DNA of 64,000 nt from assembly GCA_009927005.1 (NCBI GenBank), contig RFNV01000159.1, positions 5,605-69,604 of the forward strand, in the 5' to 3' direction. This DNA comes from Pseudomonadota bacterium (GTDB taxonomy: Bacteria > Bdellovibrionota > FAC87 > UBA2466). Position numbers and translations under genes: made by a program. Shown piece after piece: positions 7,531 to 60,983 of the stretch; position 1 is the stretch's first letter; each line of letters opens with the position of its first letter. The notes beneath the pieces are model-generated. The model made no database searches. It worked only from the letters and a program-made list of their open reading frames with translations, and was not told the origin of the DNA.

Positions 7531-8237
7531 TCTTCAAACATGAGACGATTGGCAAGATAAAGAGAGTTAAAGGTGCCGGCATCCGTCCATGCTCCCTTAA
7601 AGAAATCACAAGTGAGTGTTCCTTGCTGGACATAGTAATTATTAACATCGGTGATCTCCAGCTCTCCTCGACCACTTGGTTTGAGAGTTTTGATGACATC
7701 AAAAACCGTCGAATCATAGAAGTAGATACCGGTTACAGCGAAATTTGACTTAGGGTTTTTTGGTTTCTCCTCAATACTTAAAATTTTATTTCCCTGAAGC
7801 TCCGCTACTCCATATCTACCCGGATCTGGAACTTCTTTAAGTATTACCCTTGCACCCTTTTTTTGCTCCTGATAAGCCGTCACAAACCCATTCAAATCAT
7901 CGGAGAAAATATTGTCTCCCAAAATCGTCACGAATTTCGAATCGTGAATAAAGTCCCTCACTAATCCAAGTGCTTGAGCAATTCCGCCAGCTTCATCTTG
8001 TACTTTATACCCGAAGCGAACCCCATAATCTTTTCCCGAACCAAGCAAGTTAACCACTGCGCCCATGTGCTCGACTCCCGTCACGATCACAATGTCAGTA
8101 ATTCCTGCTTTGATCAGTTTATCAATCGGGTGAAGAATCATGGGTTTACGGCCCACAGGAAGAAGATGTTTGTTCGTCACTTTAGTTAAAGGATAAAGCC
8201 GAGAGCCGGTACCGCCTGCAAGAATTACCCCTTTCAT
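7518..8237 (-). CDS. rmlA: Sugar-1-phosphate nucleotidyltransferase, short-form glucose-1-phosphate thymidylyltransferase-like
   Basis: MKGVILAGGTGSRLYPLT N-terminus. It is 239 aa, lacking the long-form C-terminal tail. It overlaps rmlB by 4 bp. Confidence 0.7.
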   Translation of the reverse strand: MKGVILAGGTGSRLYPLTKVTNKHLLPVGRKPMILHPIDKLIKAGITDIVIVTGVEHMGAVVNLLGSGKDYGVRFGYKVQDEAGGIAQALGLVRDFIHDSKFVTILGDNIFSDDLNGFVTAYQEQKKGARVILKEVPDPGRYGVAELQGNKILSIEEKPKNPKSNFAVTGIYFYDSTVFDVIKTLKPSGRGELEITDVNNYYVQQGTLTCDFFKGAWTDAGTFNSLYLANRLMFEECLG

Positions 8238-9277
8238 GACATCACCTCACCTGTCTTCGATCCTTTAGGTTGATAATTGGCCTGATAGTATTTGAAATAT
8301 TCTTTGTCCCGAACCTTTTCCCACCAGGATCTATTCTGTTGGTACCATTCGACAGTAAGTTGAAGGCCCTGTTCTAAGCTATACTTGGGCTTCCATCCCA
8401 ATTCCTTTTTAATTTTTTCAGGATTTAATCCATAACGACGATCATGTGCAGGGCGATCCCCAACAAATGTGATGAGGCTTTCTGGTTTTTTCAATAGCCC
8501 CAAGGTTTTTTTAATCATTTCTAAATTAAGGACCTCGGCACTAGAGCTTATATTGTATACCTCTCCCGATTTGCCCTTTCTGAGAACGGCATCAATCCCT
8601 CGACAATGATCCTCGACATAGATCCAATCCCGAACCTGTTTTCCATCTCCGTACACCGGAATGGACTTGTCCTCTAGGGCATTAGCAATAATCAAAGGGA
8701 GAAGTTTCTCTGGAAATTGGTAGGGCCCGTAATTATTTGTACAGCGAGTGATTAAGATGTCCTGTTGATAAGTTCGATGACTGGCCAAAGCCAAAAGATC
8801 AGCTCCTGCCTTCGAAGCAGCGTACGGGGAGTTAGGAGACAAAGAAGTCTGTTCAGTAAAAGTCGGATCTTGTGGTTCCAAAGAACCATAAACTTCATCT
8901 GTAGAAACATGAACAAATCGTAAATTTCCAGCCTTTCGAGCCACCTGAAGAAGATTTTGAGTTCCTAGGATGTTGGTCCTGACAAAGGCTTGCGGATCTA
9001 AAATACTTCTATCGACATGGGTCTCGGCCGCAAAGTTGATGACAGCATCAATTTGATGGGATTTCAGTACTTGGGCGACTTGAGGATCCCCGATATCCAT
9101 TTTGTAAAAGTGATAGCGACTGCCTCCCAGATGCCCTAATCGGCTTACGGTATCCGGATGGGCTGCATAAGTCAGACCATCAAGATTAACTACCGTGGAT
9201 TCCGGATATTCCCTTAAAAAAAATTCAACAAAATGGGAACCAATGAACCCTGCTCCACCGGTAATTAAGACTTTCAT
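8234..9277 (-). CDS. rmlB: dTDP-glucose 4,6-dehydratase
   Basis: MKVLITGGAGFIGSHF, HVSTDEVYG and YAASKAGAD motifs. The start was chosen at the internal Met that has a GAGG SD; the track ORF extends to 9307. Confidence 0.85.
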   Translation of the reverse strand: MKVLITGGAGFIGSHFVEFFLREYPESTVVNLDGLTYAAHPDTVSRLGHLGGSRYHFYKMDIGDPQVAQVLKSHQIDAVINFAAETHVDRSILDPQAFVRTNILGTQNLLQVARKAGNLRFVHVSTDEVYGSLEPQDPTFTEQTSLSPNSPYAASKAGADLLALASHRTYQQDILITRCTNNYGPYQFPEKLLPLIIANALEDKSIPVYGDGKQVRDWIYVEDHCRGIDAVLRKGKSGEVYNISSSAEVLNLEMIKKTLGLLKKPESLITFVGDRPAHDRRYGLNPEKIKKELGWKPKYSLEQGLQLTVEWYQQNRSWWEKVRDKEYFKYYQANYQPKGSKTGEVMS

Positions 9278-53097: not shown

Positions 53098-53694
53098 ATG
53101 GCAGTTCATATTCCTTATATTGATAAGCCAAATCCAGTAACTGGAGTAACAAATGCAAAGCTGGGCATTTGGCTCTTTTTGGCATCGGAAGTGATGCTTT
53201 TCGGAGCTTTATTTTCAGCTCTGATCACCCTTCGTTTAGGAGTCAGCGATTGGCCGCACGGATATGATGTTTTAAATGTCCCGCTCGCTACCGTTAATAC
53301 CGTTGTCTTGATTTTTTCATCGGTGACTGTGGTGATGGCCTGGGCTGCTCTGAAGATGCATAATTTAAAGCAATTTAAGACTTATATGAGTCTGACTTTG
53401 TTGATGTCTTTTATCTTCTTGGGGATCAAAGCAGTTGAATATGGGAAAAAGTTTAGCCACGGCATTAGCCCTGCAACGAGTAACTTCTACGCGATTTACT
53501 TTGTCATCACAGGACTCCATGGTCTTCATATTCTTGGGGGTATCATCGTCAATGCATACCTCTTAGGACCAGGTAGTCATATGTGGAAATCCGAACCTGA
53601 GCGTTTTACAGGCCGTATCGAATGTGCTGGTCTTTATTGGCACTTTGTGGATTTGGTTTGGATTTTCTTATTTCCTATTCTTTATCTTCTGTAA
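53098..53694 (+). CDS. ctaE: Cytochrome c oxidase subunit III
   Basis: 5 TM helices and the subunit III family sequence. It starts 1 nt after the ctaD stop. Confidence 0.8.
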   Translation: MAVHIPYIDKPNPVTGVTNAKLGIWLFLASEVMLFGALFSALITLRLGVSDWPHGYDVLNVPLATVNTVVLIFSSVTVVMAWAALKMHNLKQFKTYMSLTLLMSFIFLGIKAVEYGKKFSHGISPATSNFYAIYFVITGLHGLHILGGIIVNAYLLGPGSHMWKSEPERFTGRIECAGLYWHFVDLVWIFLFPILYLL

Positions 53695-53706
53695 GGAGAA
53701 GCTACC

Positions 53707-54027
53707 ATGGCATCAGAACATATGTCCGTTGAGGAAGTGAAGAAGCACACTCGAGTTTATTGGGTGATTTTTGGCTGTTTATTATTGCTGACTGCAGTGA
53801 CCGTTGGGATTTCTTATATCCACCTGCCTTTCACCTTTGCTGTCATTTTGGCGCTGGTGGTTGCATCAACCAAAGCATCTTTAGTGGCTCTTTATTTCAT
53901 GCATTTGATTTCTGAAAAGGCAGCTATTTATTTAACCTTAGCACTTACCGCAGTTTTGTTTGCTGTATTAATCGTAGTTCCTTGGATGATCCCCATGGAT
54001 GCGATGAGGAGTTGGCTTGTCTCTTAA
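53707..54027 (+). CDS. Cytochrome c oxidase subunit IV (caa3-type small subunit)
   Basis: 106 aa with 3 TM helices, in operon position after subunit III. Confidence 0.5.
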   Translation: MASEHMSVEEVKKHTRVYWVIFGCLLLLTAVTVGISYIHLPFTFAVILALVVASTKASLVALYFMHLISEKAAIYLTLALTAVLFAVLIVVPWMIPMDAMRSWLVS

Positions 54028-54427
54028 GGTTGTTCATCTCTTTTTGATCCTCTGCTCTATTGCTCTGTCGGGATTTTTTGGGGTCTGGTCTCTTCAAAAC
54101 TATAGTTGGGATACGGGTCCATTACTGGTTTCGTTGGGATACTTGTCCCTCTCTGGAACTGGTGGGTTAGTTTTCTATCTCTTTTACTTTTTGAAGAAGA
54201 CTAAGGGCTTTGGACTTCTCGGCTTTTTATTCCTGGCCTCCCTTTTACACCCTCAGTCTGTTTGGGCGTGTGCTGTTTGCCAATTCGGCACTCCCGATTC
54301 TCCTCTTGTGAGAGCTATCAGAGAGGGAATCTGGGTTCTGTTATTTTTACTCGTTCCGGTTCTCGCGGGCTTTCTAGGCCTTTTTATTTTCTGGGCTAAA
54401 AGAGATAAAAAGATCTCCTCACTGTAA
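54017..54427 (+). CDS. Hypothetical 4-TM membrane protein with a CAVCQFG motif
   Basis: Four hydrophobic helices. It overlaps the subunit IV stop by 11 nt, and its 3' end overlaps the convergent gene by 9 nt. Confidence 0.3.
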   Translation: MSLKVVHLFLILCSIALSGFFGVWSLQNYSWDTGPLLVSLGYLSLSGTGGLVFYLFYFLKKTKGFGLLGFLFLASLLHPQSVWACAVCQFGTPDSPLVRAIREGIWVLLFLLVPVLAGFLGLFIFWAKRDKKISSL

Positions 54428-55555
54428 TGTCACTTTAATCAGCTGACGATTCTCACTCTCATAAGATCCTTTTAACTTCGCAAGAACCAATAATGTTTTT
54501 CCATCATCAGAAAGCGCCAAGTGATGTTGGTGAATGGGCCCAGTGATTTGATCTCGAAGGGGCCGAAGGATTACTGGCTCTCCATTTTCAAGATTTCGGG
54601 GATAAATGAGGCTTAACCCTTCCTCCTCGCTCCAAGCCGCTAGCACCGCTTGGCGAGGATTAAGAACCATAGGAACACTTTTTCCAAAATTGTAGTAACG
54701 GCAGCCATAAACCCCATCGTCCCAAAGGAGATTTTTCTCAGGATGATCGGTCCTGACAACAAACATATTCTGGTTACCGGCCATGAGTTCTGGGAACTGG
54801 TAAACTTCTTTCACATTTCCCGGAATGAGAGTGGAATACTGACCAGATTGGTAAAGCTTACAAACTGGGATTCCCGCAAGCTCACCCTCGATTTGGATAT
54901 TAAAGTAAGTTAGCCGAGTGCACTGATTCTCTCTTTTGACTCGGTAAAGAAAGACATTGGGATAAGTATGGCCCTCACCTAGGTGAAATACTTCTCCCAC
55001 ACCGGAGTAGAGGTTACAGATATGTGGCTTGATCCCTTTTTGACTAAAAGAATAGACCTCGATCTGTTGCTGGTGAGGCCTGACAATTGAGGAAGTAACA
55101 CTAAAAAGAGAATCCCGCCCAAAAAACCGGTGCCAGTAAAGATGTTTAACTCGCTTTTTATGTGACCACTTCTGCCAGCGTGGCGGATTGGTAGCAGTAT
55201 CGAGAGTGATCGGGGAACCCACGAGGGTTATGTACCGTTCACCGGGATCTTTAACAGGGGAAAGTGAAGCATTACTGGAGCCTAAAAGAACACTTTTTCC
55301 ACTTCTTAGATCGAGTCGATAAATTTTTCCAAATTGGTTTCGATAAACAATCTGATTTTTCTTTTCCCAAAAGACAAATTCATGCACTGGCCCTCTCAAA
55401 TCAAAATTCGTAACCCCAAGGTTTTGAATTTTTGTAATGTCTGTCAGCGGGTTCGGTCCATCCCCACCGAAACATTTGATAGAGCCAATATCGGATGCGT
55501 TTATTTGCGCAGTCACACAGAGCCAAAGGCCTAGAATTAAATTCATTTTTCTCAT
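54419..55555 (-). CDS. Secreted Cys-containing hypothetical protein, paralogue A
   Basis: Signal peptide MRKMNLILGLWLCVTAQINA. It shares motifs with 56646..57722 (LGEGHTYPNVFLYRVK versus IGEGHLVPNLLLYSEK). It overlaps the upstream regulator by 4 bp. Confidence 0.45.
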   Translation of the reverse strand: MRKMNLILGLWLCVTAQINASDIGSIKCFGGDGPNPLTDITKIQNLGVTNFDLRGPVHEFVFWEKKNQIVYRNQFGKIYRLDLRSGKSVLLGSSNASLSPVKDPGERYITLVGSPITLDTATNPPRWQKWSHKKRVKHLYWHRFFGRDSLFSVTSSIVRPHQQQIEVYSFSQKGIKPHICNLYSGVGEVFHLGEGHTYPNVFLYRVKRENQCTRLTYFNIQIEGELAGIPVCKLYQSGQYSTLIPGNVKEVYQFPELMAGNQNMFVVRTDHPEKNLLWDDGVYGCRYYNFGKSVPMVLNPRQAVLAAWSEEEGLSLIYPRNLENGEPVILRPLRDQITGPIHQHHLALSDDGKTLLVLAKLKGSYESENRQLIKVTLQ

Positions 55556-56625
55556 ACTTCTCCCTCTCGAATCGTAACTTTGGGAACTAGACGATATCCG
55601 CCCTCTTCAAAAGAAATGGGATCAACCTCAAAATCCAGTTCTAACAATATTTTTCTGAGGCAGTGGATCTGATACTGCAATTTGCTATCATCCGATGCCG
55701 GTTCATAATCTTTTTTAAATACCTTTTTAGCCATCTGGGATTTGTCTATCCATTCTTTCTTGGTAAACAGCTCGAATATTTTTGCGGGAAGGGTTTGATA
55801 GCTGAGCTCAATCTTTTTTTCATTACAAAAAACCGTCCACCCTTTTATCCCGTGTTCACAAAACAGTTCTGGTGCAATTGGTTTCGTATTCAACTTCTCT
55901 TCAAGTGCCGAGAGCTGAGCCTTTAATGTTTTGAAGGGGCTTTTTTCTACAATCGCCCGGGTCTCAGCTAATAGCTGAGTAGCTTGCTCCTTATCGTCAC
56001 GAAGGATGTAAAGGCCCCCTAAAATGACTTTTCCAGAAAAATACGCATACCAATCTCGAATGGGGTCCAATTCTTTAAAGAGTTTTGCCATTTTCTCTTC
56101 TGCTAAATCTAACTTCCCCTCATCTCGTAAAATTTTAATTCGCCACAATTCCAAACTCAGCTGAATAGGTCTATCCTGTGAATCCTCAATCGAGTCGATG
56201 ATTCTTCGACAAGCATCCACATTATCTCCCTCACAATCGTAGCAATAAGCTAGAAGCATCTTGGCCTTGGTATGTAAGTAGCTAGATTCAGGATTTGAAA
56301 TAACTTTTGTTAGGAGTTCTTTTGCAGACTTTAGATTTCTTTCAGCTCCCAGGATCGAAACTTCGGCTAATTGATAATAAAGCTCATCGGTCTGCCATTT
56401 CGAAGAGAGATTCTCTATCTGATTCAAGTAAAAGTTGAGCTCTCGTTCTTTTCCCAATTCTAGAAGGCATCGAACAAAGTAACTTAAATAAAGCGCGTGC
56501 TCGGGTTGAGGTGAAAAAGGAAGGCGGTCAAAAAATCGACGAAAAACTGCATAAGCTTCATGGAGCTTCCATGAAAAGAATAGGTCCTTCGCCTTATCTA
56601 GGTCCTTCTTCTGTTTCTCAAGCAT
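55552..56625 (-). CDS. TPR-like transcriptional regulator with C-terminal OmpR/PhoB-type winged helix, paralogue A'
   Basis: The C-terminus LPAKIFELFTKK…SDDSKLQYQIHCLRKILLELDFEVDPISFEEGGYRLVP matches a trans_reg_C wHTH. A helical TPR-like region of about 230 aa lies N-terminal, and there is no TM helix. Confidence 0.55.
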   Translation of the reverse strand: MLEKQKKDLDKAKDLFFSWKLHEAYAVFRRFFDRLPFSPQPEHALYLSYFVRCLLELGKERELNFYLNQIENLSSKWQTDELYYQLAEVSILGAERNLKSAKELLTKVISNPESSYLHTKAKMLLAYCYDCEGDNVDACRRIIDSIEDSQDRPIQLSLELWRIKILRDEGKLDLAEEKMAKLFKELDPIRDWYAYFSGKVILGGLYILRDDKEQATQLLAETRAIVEKSPFKTLKAQLSALEEKLNTKPIAPELFCEHGIKGWTVFCNEKKIELSYQTLPAKIFELFTKKEWIDKSQMAKKVFKKDYEPASDDSKLQYQIHCLRKILLELDFEVDPISFEEGGYRLVPKVTIREGEV

Positions 56626-56645
56626 TTTGTCATTAACTGTGTTTT

Positions 56646-57722
56646 CTATCTGTTTAATCCCTTTAAGCTAACTGTGTGCAGTGCGCGGCCTCCCCACTTA
56701 TCTCTTCGTTCTCTCGTACTGATAAAAAGCTGCTCTCCCTCTGAATCGACCCAAATTTGATTTCCTTCCAGAAATCCTCTGTCTACCGATAAATCCAGAG
56801 TGAAATAACGACCGGTCAGTAAGGAGTAGACGCCAACTCCTTTTTGGCGATTGATGTTTATCACCACTGAACTTTTAGTATTTGGTATGTAGGAGCGGCC
56901 GACAGGTAAAATTCCAATTGAAAATGCCCCGGGCGTTCCAAAGTATAGATTGGTAGTTTCATGATCGGTGAAGACAACTACCTCTCTCCCCTCAAAAGCC
57001 CAATTTACTGAAGTGACATTTCCCTTAAAGTATTCAGGCTCCCTCGATTGAGCTTCGATCTGGCATTTACCATTTCGTGCCTTGAGGTTGAGCGTATAGA
57101 TAGTTAACTCAGTGTCTCTATCCATATGTTTTTCGCTGTATAGGAGGAGGTTTGGCACCAAGTGACCCTCTCCAATCCTTAGGTTTTTGGGATTGTTGGC
57201 TGGGTAAAAATCACAAGCATTGTGACGAATCTGATTCTTGTCCTGATTGTAGATGAAATAGGAAATCCTCCAAGCCTCACCGTTAAGCTTTTCCAGTTTT
57301 TTTAGCAAATACAGATCGTTTTTGTCCCACAGGAGAAACTGGCTGGACCCAGGCAGGCCTATCTCCTGGCCCTTATTTTTACCCACAACCCTAACTACTT
57401 TTTTTAGATCTGAGGAGAGAACCGTTTTTCCTCCAGCTCCTGAAACTGGGAAAAGCTCATTGATAAACCCACCATACTGTTGCTCCTCACCGCTGTTAAA
57501 ATCGTAAACACGCAACTTCAAGTTTGAATCGATATAAGCAAGCTTGTCTGTTCCTTCCAGAACCGAGTAGGAAGAAATGGTTTCCTGCAAGGGAATGGTT
57601 ACTTTTCGAGGGGCTGGGATCGGAGCAAACGGCGTCGGACCATCACTGCCAATCATTTCAAAAGCCATCAACTCTTTTGATAATCCCACCAAAAGGACTA
57701 CTAAGTAAAAAATCGCCCTCAT
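56646..57722 (-). CDS. Secreted Cys-containing hypothetical protein, paralogue B
   Basis: Signal peptide from the internal Met (MRAIFYLVVLLVGLS). Paralogous to 54419..55555. It forms a 4-bp ATGA overlap with the upstream regulator. Confidence 0.45.
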   Translation of the reverse strand: MRAIFYLVVLLVGLSKELMAFEMIGSDGPTPFAPIPAPRKVTIPLQETISSYSVLEGTDKLAYIDSNLKLRVYDFNSGEEQQYGGFINELFPVSGAGGKTVLSSDLKKVVRVVGKNKGQEIGLPGSSQFLLWDKNDLYLLKKLEKLNGEAWRISYFIYNQDKNQIRHNACDFYPANNPKNLRIGEGHLVPNLLLYSEKHMDRDTELTIYTLNLKARNGKCQIEAQSREPEYFKGNVTSVNWAFEGREVVVFTDHETTNLYFGTPGAFSIGILPVGRSYIPNTKSSVVININRQKGVGVYSLLTGRYFTLDLSVDRGFLEGNQIWVDSEGEQLFISTRERRDKWGGRALHTVSLKGLNR

Positions 57723-58816
57723 AAAACATCCTCCCCGACTTCGGACACTTCTGGAACCCATCGGTATCCAAATGATTCCTTGGTTACAAGTTTTTGGGAG
57801 AATCCCAATTTAAGAAGCTGCTTTTTTAATAAGTGAAGCTGGCCATAGATCAATTTATCGTCCTTTTTGGCCCGATAATTTCTACGATACAACCGTTGAA
57901 TGATTTCCTGTTTAGGAAGAACTTTTTCGCGAATCAATGACAGAAGGAGTTTCTGCCACGGCTTGTCTCCATTAAGCTGGAGAATCTTACCCTCGTATTT
58001 TAAGATGCTCGAATTTCGAGTTCGTTCCCAGATTAAAGAAACCGAACGATCATGACCTTTGATTTGATCAGCTAAGTGGTCGATCTGCCGTTTTATCGTT
58101 CTTAAAGGATAGCGATCACAATAAGCTCTCACTTCCTTGATAATGGAAAGTAATCGATCGAATCGCTCTTGGCGAAGGTATACACCACCCAAAATTACTT
58201 GCCCCGAGAGATAAGCATGCCAATGGAAGTGGGCTTTTACAGTAGCTAGAAAAGTTCCGAGAGATCTTTCTGCGTCTTCAATTCGACCTGAATCTCTCAT
58301 TATTTTTGCTTTCCATACGGAAACCAAATCGAGCAAGTAGGGATCCAATCCATCTAAATTAATTGAGGAAATAATCGAATCACACACTTTCCAGTCTCTG
58401 GAAATAATGTCGTAGCAAGTGGAAAGACCCATTTTGGTTCGGGCCAACAAGTTGACGTCGTGACTTTTAAATAAAATTCTTTCAAAGGTTTCTCGAGCGC
58501 GATCGAGATCTGCCGTTTCTTGGGTCAAATAAGACAGCCCCACTTGATAATCAAGTTCGGGCGTTCGCTTTTTTTCTGGAATCACCGATAGCTTGTCACG
58601 GTAACTTTTTAAATCCTCATCTTTACCCAATTCATAAAGGGTCCGTATGAACATGGAAAAAAATTCTACGAGTTCGCAACTTTCCTCAACACTCATCGAA
58701 TCAAATGTCTCTTTAAAGAGGGGGTAAGCCTCCTCGAGTCGAAGCTCGTAATACAAGGAGCGAGCCTTCATTAAATGGGTAGGAATTGTTGATTTCATTT
58801 TGGGGAAAAGTATCAC
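57719..58816 (-). CDS. TPR-like transcriptional regulator with C-terminal OmpR/PhoB-type winged helix, paralogue B'
   Basis: The C-terminus KDDKLIYGQLHLLKKQLLKLGFSQKLVTKESFGYRWVP is wHTH. The shared WHAYLSGQVILGGVYL motif matches WYAYFSGKVILGGLYI in A'. Confidence 0.55.
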   Translation of the reverse strand: MILFPKMKSTIPTHLMKARSLYYELRLEEAYPLFKETFDSMSVEESCELVEFFSMFIRTLYELGKDEDLKSYRDKLSVIPEKKRTPELDYQVGLSYLTQETADLDRARETFERILFKSHDVNLLARTKMGLSTCYDIISRDWKVCDSIISSINLDGLDPYLLDLVSVWKAKIMRDSGRIEDAERSLGTFLATVKAHFHWHAYLSGQVILGGVYLRQERFDRLLSIIKEVRAYCDRYPLRTIKRQIDHLADQIKGHDRSVSLIWERTRNSSILKYEGKILQLNGDKPWQKLLLSLIREKVLPKQEIIQRLYRRNYRAKKDDKLIYGQLHLLKKQLLKLGFSQKLVTKESFGYRWVPEVSEVGEDVL

Positions 58817-58959
58817 ATTCTCAGGGCCCGTGTAAAAAAGGTTTGGGGTAGCGCGTCGCGACAGAAATCAGCGTTAGAATTGACTCGGCCGGCCTAGATT
58901 GAGCTTCGCAGCAAGTGAGATCATAAGAAGTAGTTTCCTCATTCTCTCACTCTGTAATC

Positions 58960-59595
58960 ATGAACATACTTTCACACCGAGGTCTCTGGAAAGAGCCTCA
59001 AGAGCAAAATCAACTGTCTTCCTTTGCAACGAGTCAGACTGAAGGTTTTGGAACTGAAACTGACCTGCGTTCGTATTCCGGTAAACTCTACCTGTCTCAC
59101 GATCCGTTGAGTTCCTCCCGAGACGCCCTCAAATTTGAAGATCTTCTGACTCTTTGGGCAGATCGCCCCGAATTGCCTCTTTTTCTCAATATTAAAGAAG
59201 ATGGTCTCCTGCCGTATTTGAAACCTTATCATTCTCTCTTGGAAAGACTCAGAGTCGTTTTTTTTGATATGAGCGTTCCCCAACTGGTTCAGTTTTCAAA
59301 AGTTTTCCCGCGGAAGATGTTAGCAACTCGTTTCTCAGAATATGAGCGAGAACCCTCCGCTCAAGAACTTTGTAGTTGGCTTTGGGTGGATAGCTTTCAT
59401 TCCGATCCCGAACTCAGTTCTCTCAGGCCCTTTGCGATCGAAAAAAAAATGTCGCTCGCAATTGTTTCGCCTGATCTCCATGGACGAGATCCCAAGCCGA
59501 TTTGGAAGAGGCTCCGAACTGAACCGATTATCCCCAGTGAAGCTCTTTATTTTTGTACCGATATCCCGCAGGAATTTTCAAAGGAATCATTATGA
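58960..59595 (+). CDS. Glycerophosphodiester phosphodiesterase (GDPD)-family protein
   Basis: LSHRGLW…GFGTETDLR is an N-terminal GDPD catalytic His/Glu/Asp pattern. Its stop overlaps the start of the next gene (ATGA). Confidence 0.5.
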   Translation: MNILSHRGLWKEPQEQNQLSSFATSQTEGFGTETDLRSYSGKLYLSHDPLSSSRDALKFEDLLTLWADRPELPLFLNIKEDGLLPYLKPYHSLLERLRVVFFDMSVPQLVQFSKVFPRKMLATRFSEYEREPSAQELCSWLWVDSFHSDPELSSLRPFAIEKKMSLAIVSPDLHGRDPKPIWKRLRTEPIIPSEALYFCTDIPQEFSKESL

Positions 59596-60983
59596 TCAAA
59601 GCAGTCATTTTTGACTTAGATGGCGTTTTAGTCGATGCAGTTACTTTGCATTATCAAGCTTTCAGTCGCGCCATAAACCTTTTTGGCTTTGAAGTGCCCC
59701 CTGCCGTTCATGGTTTTAACTACAATGGTTTACCAACCACGGTAAAACTCGAAATGCTCTCTCAATTTTCAGCGCTTCCCAGAGGCTTGCATTCCTTCAT
59801 CAATGAAATGAAACAAGTTTACACTCAGGAACTCTTAAACCAGCGATTAAAGCCCTCTCTCCTTCAAATTAATTTACTAAAAACACTTCGTGAGCGAGGT
59901 ATGAAATTAGCAGTAGCTTCAAACTGCTCGCGAGGCACCGTCGATCTCGTTTTGGAAAAGCTTCAGATTCGACCCTTTTTTGATGTCATTCTTTCTAAGG
60001 ATGATGTCAGTAAATCTAAGCCCGATCCAGAGATTTATTTAAAATGCTTTAAAACCCTGGGAGTAAATAGCGACGAAGTTTTAATCATAGAAGATTCTAA
60101 ACCTGGGATCATAGCGGCTCAAAAGGCGACATCCAATGTCGCGATCGTTAAGAGTCCTGCTGAGGTTAATCTCTCTTTTATCAACTCTCAAATTGCGAAA
60201 TTTCGAGATCAGAATTGTCTAGATACACGAACCGTTGAGATTGTGATTCCCATGGCAGGATTAGGTTCACGGTTTGCAGATGTTGGGTATGTTGATCCGA
60301 AGCCCCTCATCAAAGTACATGGCAAGCCGATGATTCAGTGGGTAATTGAAAATTTAAGTTCTCAGAACTATCGGACCCATTTTAACTTTATTGTTAATCG
60401 AACCCATTTCGAATCTTTTGATCTAGAAAATCGACTTTCCGAACTTGCACCGGGTTGCCAGATTATTTCGGTGCCCCACAAGACGGAAGGAGCTGCGTGC
60501 ACTGTTCTGTTAGCGCTAGATCGAATCGCCCTCGATAGACCCCTCATTATTGCTAATTCAGATCAGTTCGTAGAGAGCTCCTTCGAGGATTTTCTAAAAT
60601 CAGCTTTGGAATCAGATAGAGATGGCTTGATCATGACCTTTCCCGCGAAAGAGACAAAGTGGAGTTATGCGCGGTTGGATGATAAGGATTTGGTAGTTGA
60701 AGTAGCTGAGAAAAAGCCAATTAGCTCTCACGCAACGGTAGGAATCTACTATTTTAAAACGGCAGAACTTTTCCAAAGAGCTAGTTATTCGATGATTCGC
60801 TCGGACGTTAGAACCAATAATGAGTTTTACGTATGCCCTGTATACAATGACCTTATTCAGGCAGGCGGCAAAGTAGGAATTTTTCCCATTCCGGCAGAAG
60901 CCATGCATGGGCTGGGGACTCCAGAAGATTTGGCTATTTTCCTCGAACGTTCAGTGAAGCGCCCTCTTCCTCTGGCCGCGTAA
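59592..60983 (+). CDS. Bifunctional HAD-IA hydrolase (beta-phosphoglucomutase-like) / sugar-phosphate nucleotidyltransferase fusion
   Basis: N-terminal IKAVIFDLDGVLVDAV plus the KSKPDP HAD motifs. The C-terminal IVIPMAGLGSRF…KPLIKVHGKPMIQW has an NTP-transferase signature. An AAGGAA SD precedes the ATG at 59592. Confidence 0.55.
   Translation: MIKAVIFDLDGVLVDAVTLHYQAFSRAINLFGFEVPPAVHGFNYNGLPTTVKLEMLSQFSALPRGLHSFINEMKQVYTQELLNQRLKPSLLQINLLKTLRERGMKLAVASNCSRGTVDLVLEKLQIRPFFDVILSKDDVSKSKPDPEIYLKCFKTLGVNSDEVLIIEDSKPGIIAAQKATSNVAIVKSPAEVNLSFINSQIAKFRDQNCLDTRTVEIVIPMAGLGSRFADVGYVDPKPLIKVHGKPMIQWVIENLSSQNYRTHFNFIVNRTHFESFDLENRLSELAPGCQIISVPHKTEGAACTVLLALDRIALDRPLIIANSDQFVESSFEDFLKSALESDRDGLIMTFPAKETKWSYARLDDKDLVVEVAEKKPISSHATVGIYYFKTAELFQRASYSMIRSDVRTNNEFYVCPVYNDLIQAGGKVGIFPIPAEAMHGLGTPEDLAIFLERSVKRPLPLAA

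Follow-up and report, generated by a model that had tools for sequence, protein, structure and literature searches.

Paired genes for a predicted TPR–winged-helix regulator and a predicted exported beta-propeller, duplicated in tandem in a Bdellovibrionota genome

We studied a 64,000-nucleotide stretch of DNA (the window; contig RFNV01000159.1 of assembly GCA_009927005.1, positions 5,605 to 69,604 of the forward strand) from a bacterium of the Bdellovibrionota and, in it, a cassette of four minus-strand genes for two regulators, B' and A', each followed directly by the gene of a predicted exported beta-propeller protein, B and A. The regulators combine a tetratricopeptide repeat (TPR) domain with a C-terminal winged helix. 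We propose that the cassette encodes a dedicated one-component regulator with the exported propeller as its output, held in two old tandem copies within one autoregulated operon, and we give this reading a probability of about 0.48, slightly short of even. DNA binding, autoregulation, the nature of the cue and the site at which the propeller would act are what we infer; the gene pair itself recurs in every locus where it could be assessed.

The four-gene cassette and the recurrence of the pair

The minus strand between positions 54419 and 58816 holds four long open reading frames (ORFs) in the order regulator B', propeller B, regulator A' and propeller A. A sequence-only reading of the window had described these four genes at the same positions, and the ORFs and the peptides that it quoted are all present. 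Within each pair the stop codon of the regulator and the start codon of the propeller meet in a 4-bp ATGA overlap (57722-57719 for B' and B, 55555-55552 for A' and A), and a 20-nt gap separates the TAG of B from the ATG of A'; both the overlaps and the gap, which that reading had pointed out, can be read directly in the sequence. It had also taken the two regulators for paralogues, and the two secreted proteins likewise. Congruently, B' and A' share 28% identity over 344 aa (E = 5e-50), and B and A share 20% over 302 aa (E = 6e-9). For B' the proposed ORF, 57719-58816, stood and its GTG start did not: orthologues align with B' from ATG 58798 (MKSTIPTHLMKARSLYY) and GTG 58816 falls within a promoter-like site upstream of the gene, so that the start is probably ATG 58798, which gives a protein of 359 aa.

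As the reference for selection we used the closest relative, a metagenome-assembled genome (MAG) of Bdellovibrio sp. ZAP7 (locus L008). The ratio of non-synonymous to synonymous substitution rates (dN/dS) was 0.035-0.053 for B', A' and A, and the proportions of non-synonymous (pN) and synonymous (pS) differences in B were 0.12 and 0.75. These values indicate purifying selection, and since non-synonymous change lies far below synonymous change, all four ORFs are real genes. Neither internal promoters nor internal terminators stood out when the cassette was scanned (8 promoter-like sites where 7.4 were expected by chance; terminator-like sites at chance level), and a single four-gene transcript is plausible. 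The genes and their parts are listed here.

57719-58798, minus strand: regulator B' (REG1), 359 aa, paralogue of A'; family hidden Markov model match 3e-123
58058-58798, minus strand: TPR-type, all-helical input domain of B', located at about aa 1-247 through alignment with the model of A'
57737-58039, minus strand: OmpR/PhoB/ToxR-type winged helix of B', about aa 254-354, from a weak Trans_reg_C match and family-level support
57729-57736, minus strand: Shine-Dalgarno sequence GGGGAGGA for propeller B, within the last B' codons, read from the sequence
56646-57722, minus strand: propeller B (PROP1), 358 aa, predicted to be exported, fast-evolving, with two of the four family-typical cysteines
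57663-57722, minus strand: predicted signal peptide of B (MRAIFYLVVLLVGLSKELMA), from N-terminal hydropathy; cleavage predicted by eye before FE
55552-56625, minus strand: regulator A' (REG2), 357 aa; AlphaFold2 (AF2) model with a predicted local distance difference test score (pLDDT) of 88.6
55888-56625, minus strand: TPR-type domain of A', 13 helices, aa 3-246, from AF2, Foldseek, matches of profiles to the PDB and conservation
55567-55869, minus strand: winged helix of A', aa 253-353, from AF2, matches of profiles to the PDB and Trans_reg_C at family level
55560-55565, minus strand: Shine-Dalgarno sequence AGGGAG for propeller A, within the end of A', read from the sequence
54419-55555, minus strand: propeller A (PROP2), 378 aa, seven-bladed beta-propeller with C28, C180, C232 and C285 and the motif C-x-GGDGPxP
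55496-55555, minus strand: predicted signal peptide of A (MRKMNLILGLWLCVTAQINA), from a predicted helix (2-18) and family hydropathy; cleavage predicted before SD

Pairing was counted from the regulator genes, by searching the loci, translated into ORFs in all six frames, with the profile of each family. A propeller gene on the same strand lay directly after each of the 41 non-redundant regulator genes. Another 19 metagenome loci added 22 assessable regulators, all 22 with a propeller gene in that place, and five more that were cut by contig ends; the total is 63 assessable cases without an exception. Pairing is kept among relatives down to ~30% identity, and at 29 of the 41 junctions we found the identical 4-bp overlap together with a GGAGG-like site in the last codons of the regulator. 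Most loci hold one pair; two tandem pairs occur in the clade of the window and in several other lineages, and some MAGs carry two separate loci. The pair thus behaves as a conserved unit that a locus holds once or twice, a recurrence that the sequence-only reading had proposed to look for.

The regulator and propeller trees agree on the history of the copies. In both, the upstream pair of the window clade forms a divergent clade of its own, and the downstream pair lies nearer to homologues from single-pair loci. The two pairs of locus L003 are nearer to each other (48% identity between the regulators) than to the pairs of the window. This placement indicates more than one duplication of the whole unit, and it bears out the earlier claim that the two-gene unit of the window was duplicated as a whole. 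The mirror-tree correlation between the two families was r = 0.84. Inheritance as an operon could by itself keep the genes together, with the regulator controlling other genes and the propeller serving an unrelated role. Both genes do sit in a conserved chromosomal synteny block, and a correlation of this size is expected of any co-inherited neighbours. However, no exception occurred among the 63 cases despite flanks that change between loci (cox genes adjacent in some, glycosyltransferases or an ABC exporter in others), joint duplication of both genes happened several times and the geometry of the overlap is conserved, which makes co-inheritance alone an unlikely explanation.

Homologues of the regulator (45 clusters) and of the propellers (22 and 10 clusters) came only from metagenomes and MAGs. 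An exhaustive profile search with the propeller family among 1.84 billion representatives returned only 123 clusters, almost all of them stand-alone proteins of ~350 aa. We also scanned one genome per species with two peptide patterns, a scan that does not prove absence elsewhere; it gave 28 loci, all in MAGs and none from a cultured isolate, most of them labelled as Bdellovibrionota taxa and the others only generically (Proteobacteria, "bacterium"). Judging by these searches, the module appears so far only in MAGs of the Bdellovibrionota and in metagenomes.

Domain architecture of the regulators and the propellers

Scans of the single proteins against Pfam, NCBIfam and PADLOC gave nothing above threshold. 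Below it, the Pfam scan placed Trans_reg_C at aa 292-352 of B' (GTG numbering; E = 0.09) and, weakly, TPR_19 in A' (E = 7e-4). At the level of the family the picture is firmer: Trans_reg_C (PF00486) matches 29 of 34 members at E<=0.1 (best 1.4e-6), TPR_19 matches 27 of the 34, and TPR_14 and TPR_MalT match 12 each. When the profile of the whole family was compared with the PDB, positions 65-257 matched TPR proteins (kinesin light chain at 7e-5, LpoA) and positions 243-357 matched OmpR/ToxR-type domains. A profile of the C-terminal 110 residues found seven PDB sequences, exclusively ToxR, BaeR, AdeR and SaeR (E from 1e-3 to 6e-3), with ToxR as the best match (E = 9.6e-4).

The AF2 model of A' (pLDDT 88.6) consists of 13 helices (aa 3-246) followed by a three-stranded sheet, three helices and a C-terminal hairpin. 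In the winged helix the strands span 253-275, the helices 279-289, 295-303 and 309-328, and the hairpin 337-353, with pLDDT ~90; its topology is that of OmpR/PhoB. IHxLRKxL is kept in the recognition helix and GYR in the wing, and the most conserved block of the regulator, AYxIFRRFFDRLPF...ELGKExEL, lies in the TPR domain. Foldseek matched the helical part of A' to generic TPR superhelices (APC6, kinesin light chain (KLC)-like proteins, RapI, NprR, MalT domain III) at E from 3e-4 to 1e-2, and no single TPR protein stands out among them. The sequence-only reading had taken the regulators for TPR proteins with a winged helix-turn-helix (wHTH) and had named failure of the wHTH in profile searches as what would speak against it. 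The assignment survives those searches, and the Trans_reg_C matches, the profile matches to the PDB and the AF2 topology agree on it.

None of 36 regulators has a signal-like N-terminus, a lipobox or a transmembrane segment, and the maximum of the 19-aa hydropathy window does not exceed 1.29 (<=1.29) in any of them. As modelled, the regulators are soluble and cytoplasmic, with a TPR domain instead of a receiver ahead of an OmpR-type output domain, and they are predicted to bind DNA. The recognition helix differs between A' and B', and the two copies in the window probably act without cross-talk. A TPR protein and a propeller could also form a complex in the envelope, in the style of BamD/BamB or CpoB/TolB, the "regulator" then not being transcriptional. 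Weak profile matches of the TPR part to BamD/YfiO, PorW and LpoA point that way. Given that the regulators lack any export or membrane signal and carry a winged helix with the hallmark residues of its family, such a complex is extremely unlikely.

The partner adopts the WD40-like propeller fold, with seven four-stranded blades around a central axis. An N-terminal hydrophobic segment is present in all 36 propellers, with no further membrane segment, and it is followed directly by the conserved motif C-x-GGDGPxP. Exactly four cysteines lie in the mature part of 27 of the 36. From these features the propellers are predicted to be exported by Sec, and two disulfides are predicted among C28, C180, C232 and C285 of propeller A. 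The sequence-only reading had described the partners as exported, folded and Cys-containing, a description with which the signal-type N-terminus, the fold and the cysteine count concur. Propeller B lacks two of the four family-typical cysteines, as do its close orthologues in L008 and L009. At L006:9070-10213 a propeller gene is fragmented across frames 3' of an intact regulator gene, which could be a pseudogene or reflect indel errors in the contig.

Two other routes of export were considered and discarded: a lipoprotein, as the conserved Cys is usually preceded by a charged residue and there is no lipobox, and Tat export, as the family has no twin-arginine motif. The propeller as an enzyme (of the lactonase, oligogalacturonate lyase or S9 peptidase type) was likewise rejected, because the alignment of 78 propeller sequences contains no invariant polar residue; its invariant or near-invariant residues are exclusively Pro, Gly, Cys and Leu, and His196 and the DHP motif are variable. 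The earlier reading had allowed that the secreted proteins might turn out to belong to a known enzyme family without co-occurrence with the regulator; we found no enzyme match, and co-occurrence is strict. Since the propellers lack a catalytic signature we favour a non-enzymatic role, and the propeller probably serves for binding or as a scaffold, in the periplasm or outside the cell.

These properties of both partners bear on the comparison with RRNPP-type quorum systems that the sequence-only reading had made. In such cell-cell signalling the exported protein, or a peptide released from it or from its signal peptide, would re-enter the cell and bind the TPR domain. The order of the genes, a TPR regulator followed by an overlapping gene for an exported product, and the presence of several cassettes per genome do recall rap-phr, and structures of Rap and NprR are among the Foldseek matches of the TPR domain. 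Enterococcal pheromones, moreover, derive from signal peptides of lipoproteins, a precedent for a large exported protein as the source of a peptide. RRNPP regulators, however, belong to Firmicutes, carry an N-terminal XRE-type helix-turn-helix or a three-helix bundle and act with a pro-peptide of ~40-60 aa. Here the order of the domains is reversed, the DNA-binding domain is a C-terminal wHTH of the OmpR type, and the partner is a propeller of ~350 aa, predicted to be disulfide-bonded and with its conserved motif inside the fold. The signal peptides of the propellers are not conserved in sequence, and the diderm hosts would impose two membranes on a re-entering peptide. The matches to Rap and NprR (E ~3e-3) lie below or among those to generic TPR proteins and are no better than those to APC6 or kinesin light chain. 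Nor does a conserved small ORF accompany the module, the 22-codon ORF at 58874-58942 not being kept in relatives. We therefore depart from the earlier reading at this point and regard signalling of the RRNPP kind as very improbable.

Expression signals, regulators without a winged helix and the proposed mechanism

Upstream of B' we identified one candidate promoter.

58809-58836, minus strand: candidate sigma-70-type promoter, -35 box TTTACA at 58836-58831, 16-nt spacer, extended -10 TG-n-GATACT

The TG of its extended -10 lies at 58817-58816 and the hexamer at 58814-58809. If this putative promoter functions, it predicts that the transcript starts ~4 nt before ATG 58798, with a leader of only a few nucleotides. 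Most loci have an extended -10 of the form TGTGnTAnnnT ahead of their first regulator gene; it sits at -17 to -20 in the clade of the window and roughly at -34 to -62 in the others. The regulators have no Shine-Dalgarno sequence and the propellers have strong ones, a pattern that fits low output of the regulator and high output of the propeller.

In 16-17 of 31 loci (L003, L004, L012, L015, L017, L019-L023, L026-L029, L033 and L035; for example L019:2987 and L026:5863) a further conserved element, YGTTAACAnnTGT, is found 99-173 nt before the start of the first regulator gene, against a background of 0.16 GTTAAC per kb. Its core, TGTTAACA, is a palindrome, with the version CAGGTGTTAACACCTG in L019, and it mostly lies in the intergenic region common with a divergent peptidase M14 gene. 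It is a candidate operator; the window clade does not have it. No match to Rfam was found in 53500-59500.

Under the reading that we prefer, the regulator would bind DNA and control its own operon, and its TPR domain would take a cytoplasmic cue that may be a peptide, a protein or a small molecule. The propeller would be the dedicated output of its regulator, with little regulator and much propeller being made. Once mature, the propeller would work outside the cytoplasm and never meet the regulator, so that any feedback from it would be only indirect.

Several results weigh against this reading. The Trans_reg_C match of B' reaches 13.3 bits where the cut-off of PF00486 is 26.2, and A' is not listed. 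No operator was found in the promoter region of the window, which lacks the direct repeats that winged helices of this type usually bind. The strict pairing and the conserved overlap exceed what is usual for a regulator and its target. Finally, the regulators of L007/L037, both copies in L032, that of L033 and the second copy of L053 consist of the TPR part alone and are still propeller-coupled. These TPR-only regulators (~240-267 aa; L007:8001-8783, L037:2134-2856, L032:5483-6367 and 7538-8347, L033:5938-6768, L053:4992-5837) end at profile position ~250, which leaves no space for a winged helix before the propeller gene. They are intact and retain the conserved N-terminal block as AYxILRRFFDRLPF. 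The L007 and L037 cases come from two independent samples, and in L053 the TPR-only copy comes after a full-length pair in the same locus. A further candidate, P0043, was rejected as a TPR-only variant because it is truncated by a contig end. Because these variants are intact and stay coupled, the conserved core of the module is the TPR domain with the propeller, and the role of the TPR domain would be tied to the propeller without DNA binding.

Such a core is what would be expected of a feedback coupled to export. There, the TPR domain would bind the propeller precursor before export, through its signal peptide or its C-x-GGDGPxP N-terminus, as a cytoplasmic escort, and its binding and release of the precursor would switch the winged helix, so that transcription would track whether the partner has been exported. 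The TPR–winged-helix protein would in that case monitor the export of the propeller, uniting in itself the chaperone and co-activator roles known from type III secretion, here for a Sec substrate, and the TPR-only variants would be the bare escort. The strict 1:1 pairing and the 4-bp overlap conserved down to ~30% identity speak for it, as do the TPR-only variants, which leave TPR plus propeller, and not DNA-binding domain plus propeller, as the common core. It is also at the N-terminus that each protein holds its most conserved block. Against it, we know of no precedent for a dedicated cytoplasmic TPR escort of a Sec substrate. The N-terminal motif of the propeller is predicted inside the fold (strand 26-29), where its Cys is expected in a disulfide. 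The evolutionary rates of the first pair point the same way: by dN, propeller B evolves 2.4 times faster than regulator B' (identity between the window and L008 is 91% for B' and 76% for B), and the pair A'/A evolves in step. The decoupled rates of the first pair argue against tight physical co-evolution. We consider feedback through export, and with it the regulator as an export monitor, a doubtful though not negligible alternative to a regulator with the propeller as its output.

Surroundings and comparison with known systems

The module lies in a conserved, syntenic block of the chromosome, with the cox operon convergent downstream and genes for a peptidase M14, a trypsin-like protease, a sigma-54 activator, DFP and flagellin on the upstream side. 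No mobile-element genes were found in the surroundings of the module. A search for anti-phage defence with PADLOC gave only chance-level matches (E 0.002-0.02), the neighbours being housekeeping genes. The cytochrome c oxidase (cox) operon of the window is closed by a plus-strand gene at 54017-54427 for a 136-aa membrane protein with four hydrophobic stretches (by eye) and a CAVC motif. This protein is conserved beside the cox genes in 16 loci and has no Pfam match; the 3' end of its gene overlaps the 3' end of the propeller A gene, convergently, by 9 nt.

On the other side of the cassette, a divergent plus-strand gene at 58960-59595 encodes a conserved 211-aa protein without a Pfam match. It is followed by a plus-strand gene at 59553-60983 for a fused HAD-hydrolase/nucleotidyltransferase, whose ORF, taken from the first possible start, overlaps the 211-aa ORF by 43 nt. 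Both genes are kept beside the module in the window clade. Between the cassette and this divergent gene lies the 22-codon minus-strand ORF at 58874-58942 (MRKLLLMISLAAKLNLGRPSQF), which overlaps a 33-nt DNA block conserved in L001, L008, L009 and L011. We rejected the ORF as a pro-peptide, as it has 11 codons in L008 and no ATG in L001. The 33-nt block, the one further stretch conserved upstream of the module in the window clade, more probably serves as promoter for the divergent gene at 58960 (TTGAGC, 17 nt, CATAAG on the plus strand).

A gene for a sigma-54 activator (~324-337 aa; Sigma54_activat/AAA-type plus HTH_8, no receiver match) is a neighbour of the module in at least 11 loci, for example at L003:4218-5216, L004:2953-3960, L007:6889-7863, L036:839-1852 and L037:1022-1996, and is missing from the window. 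This frequent neighbour led us to suspect a sigma-54 promoter. None of 32 upstream regions reached 10 of 12 matches, which is no better than shuffled sequences. In the lineage of L007 and L037, whose regulators are TPR-only, the activator gene is divergent and upstream of the pair, and a same-strand series of genes comes after the pair, encoding a TolC-like outer-membrane factor, a membrane-fusion protein, two ABC ATPases and two ABC-2 permeases (L007:9864-15671, L037:3937-8856).

Full-text literature searches returned no description of a TPR plus OmpR-type winged-helix protein paired with an exported propeller. One-component regulators and "co-component" pairs of a regulator and its partner are already known; what appears new here is a TPR input domain before an OmpR-type winged helix, always coupled to a propeller. 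The pairing, the repeated duplication and the loss of the winged helix with the partner kept suggest that a cytoplasmic and an extracytoplasmic protein are functionally tied without a link that spans the membrane. Once understood, this tie could reveal a new bacterial route from envelope events to transcription, and it could give a function to two protein families that currently have none. Were the regulator to monitor export, the module would represent a new class of co-component signalling in predatory bacteria; if it is merely a regulator with its target, it is an ordinary lineage-specific operon.

Several known systems share part of this design. Response regulators of the OmpR/PhoB family have the same type of C-terminal DNA-binding domain, with IHxLRKxL and GYR; in the module ~245 aa of TPR repeats replace the receiver domain, and the locus has no partner kinase. 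RRNPP systems (Rap-Phr, NprR-NprX, PlcR-PapR) likewise combine a cytoplasmic TPR regulator with an overlapping gene for a Sec-exported product in multiplied cassettes, and some of their members, such as Rap, lack a DNA-binding domain, as the TPR-only variants do here. They differ from a module in which the TPR domain precedes an OmpR-type winged helix, the partner is a propeller of 358-378 aa and the TPR match is one of generic fold only. SARP/BTAD regulators and HilA are soluble one-component proteins that also join an OmpR-type winged helix to a TPR-like helical domain. In them the winged helix comes first, the reverse of the order found here, and no exported partner is obligatory; among the 25 listed of the 43 Pfam families that match members, BTAD does not appear.

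In BamD/BamB and CpoB/TolB, a TPR protein and a beta-propeller are encoded together, as in our module, but both partners are exported, whereas the TPR protein of the module is predicted to be cytoplasmic and to carry a DNA-binding domain. In type III export, the class II TPR chaperones of IpgC-MxiE and SicA-InvF, which act as transcriptional co-activators, and FlgM-sigma-28, involve a chaperone and an activator as separate proteins. The module may share their logic, in which a TPR protein and an export substrate link export to transcription; the likeness is one of analogy only, as in the module the domains are fused and the substrate has a Sec signal.

Closest to the module among known systems is the co-component regulator of the ToxR type: the two have in common a winged-helix factor of the ToxR/OmpR type and a downstream gene for an extracytoplasmic partner, co-transcription here being predicted. 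Two articles present ToxR-ToxS, TcpP-TcpH and PsaE-PsaF as such co-component regulators with an extracytoplasmic partner (PMC13042144; PMC8407435). In these factors the winged helix is N-terminal, and after it come a transmembrane helix and, in contact with the partner, a periplasmic domain. In contrast, the regulators of the module have a C-terminal winged helix, no membrane segment and a cytoplasmic TPR sensor, and their partner is a seven-bladed propeller.

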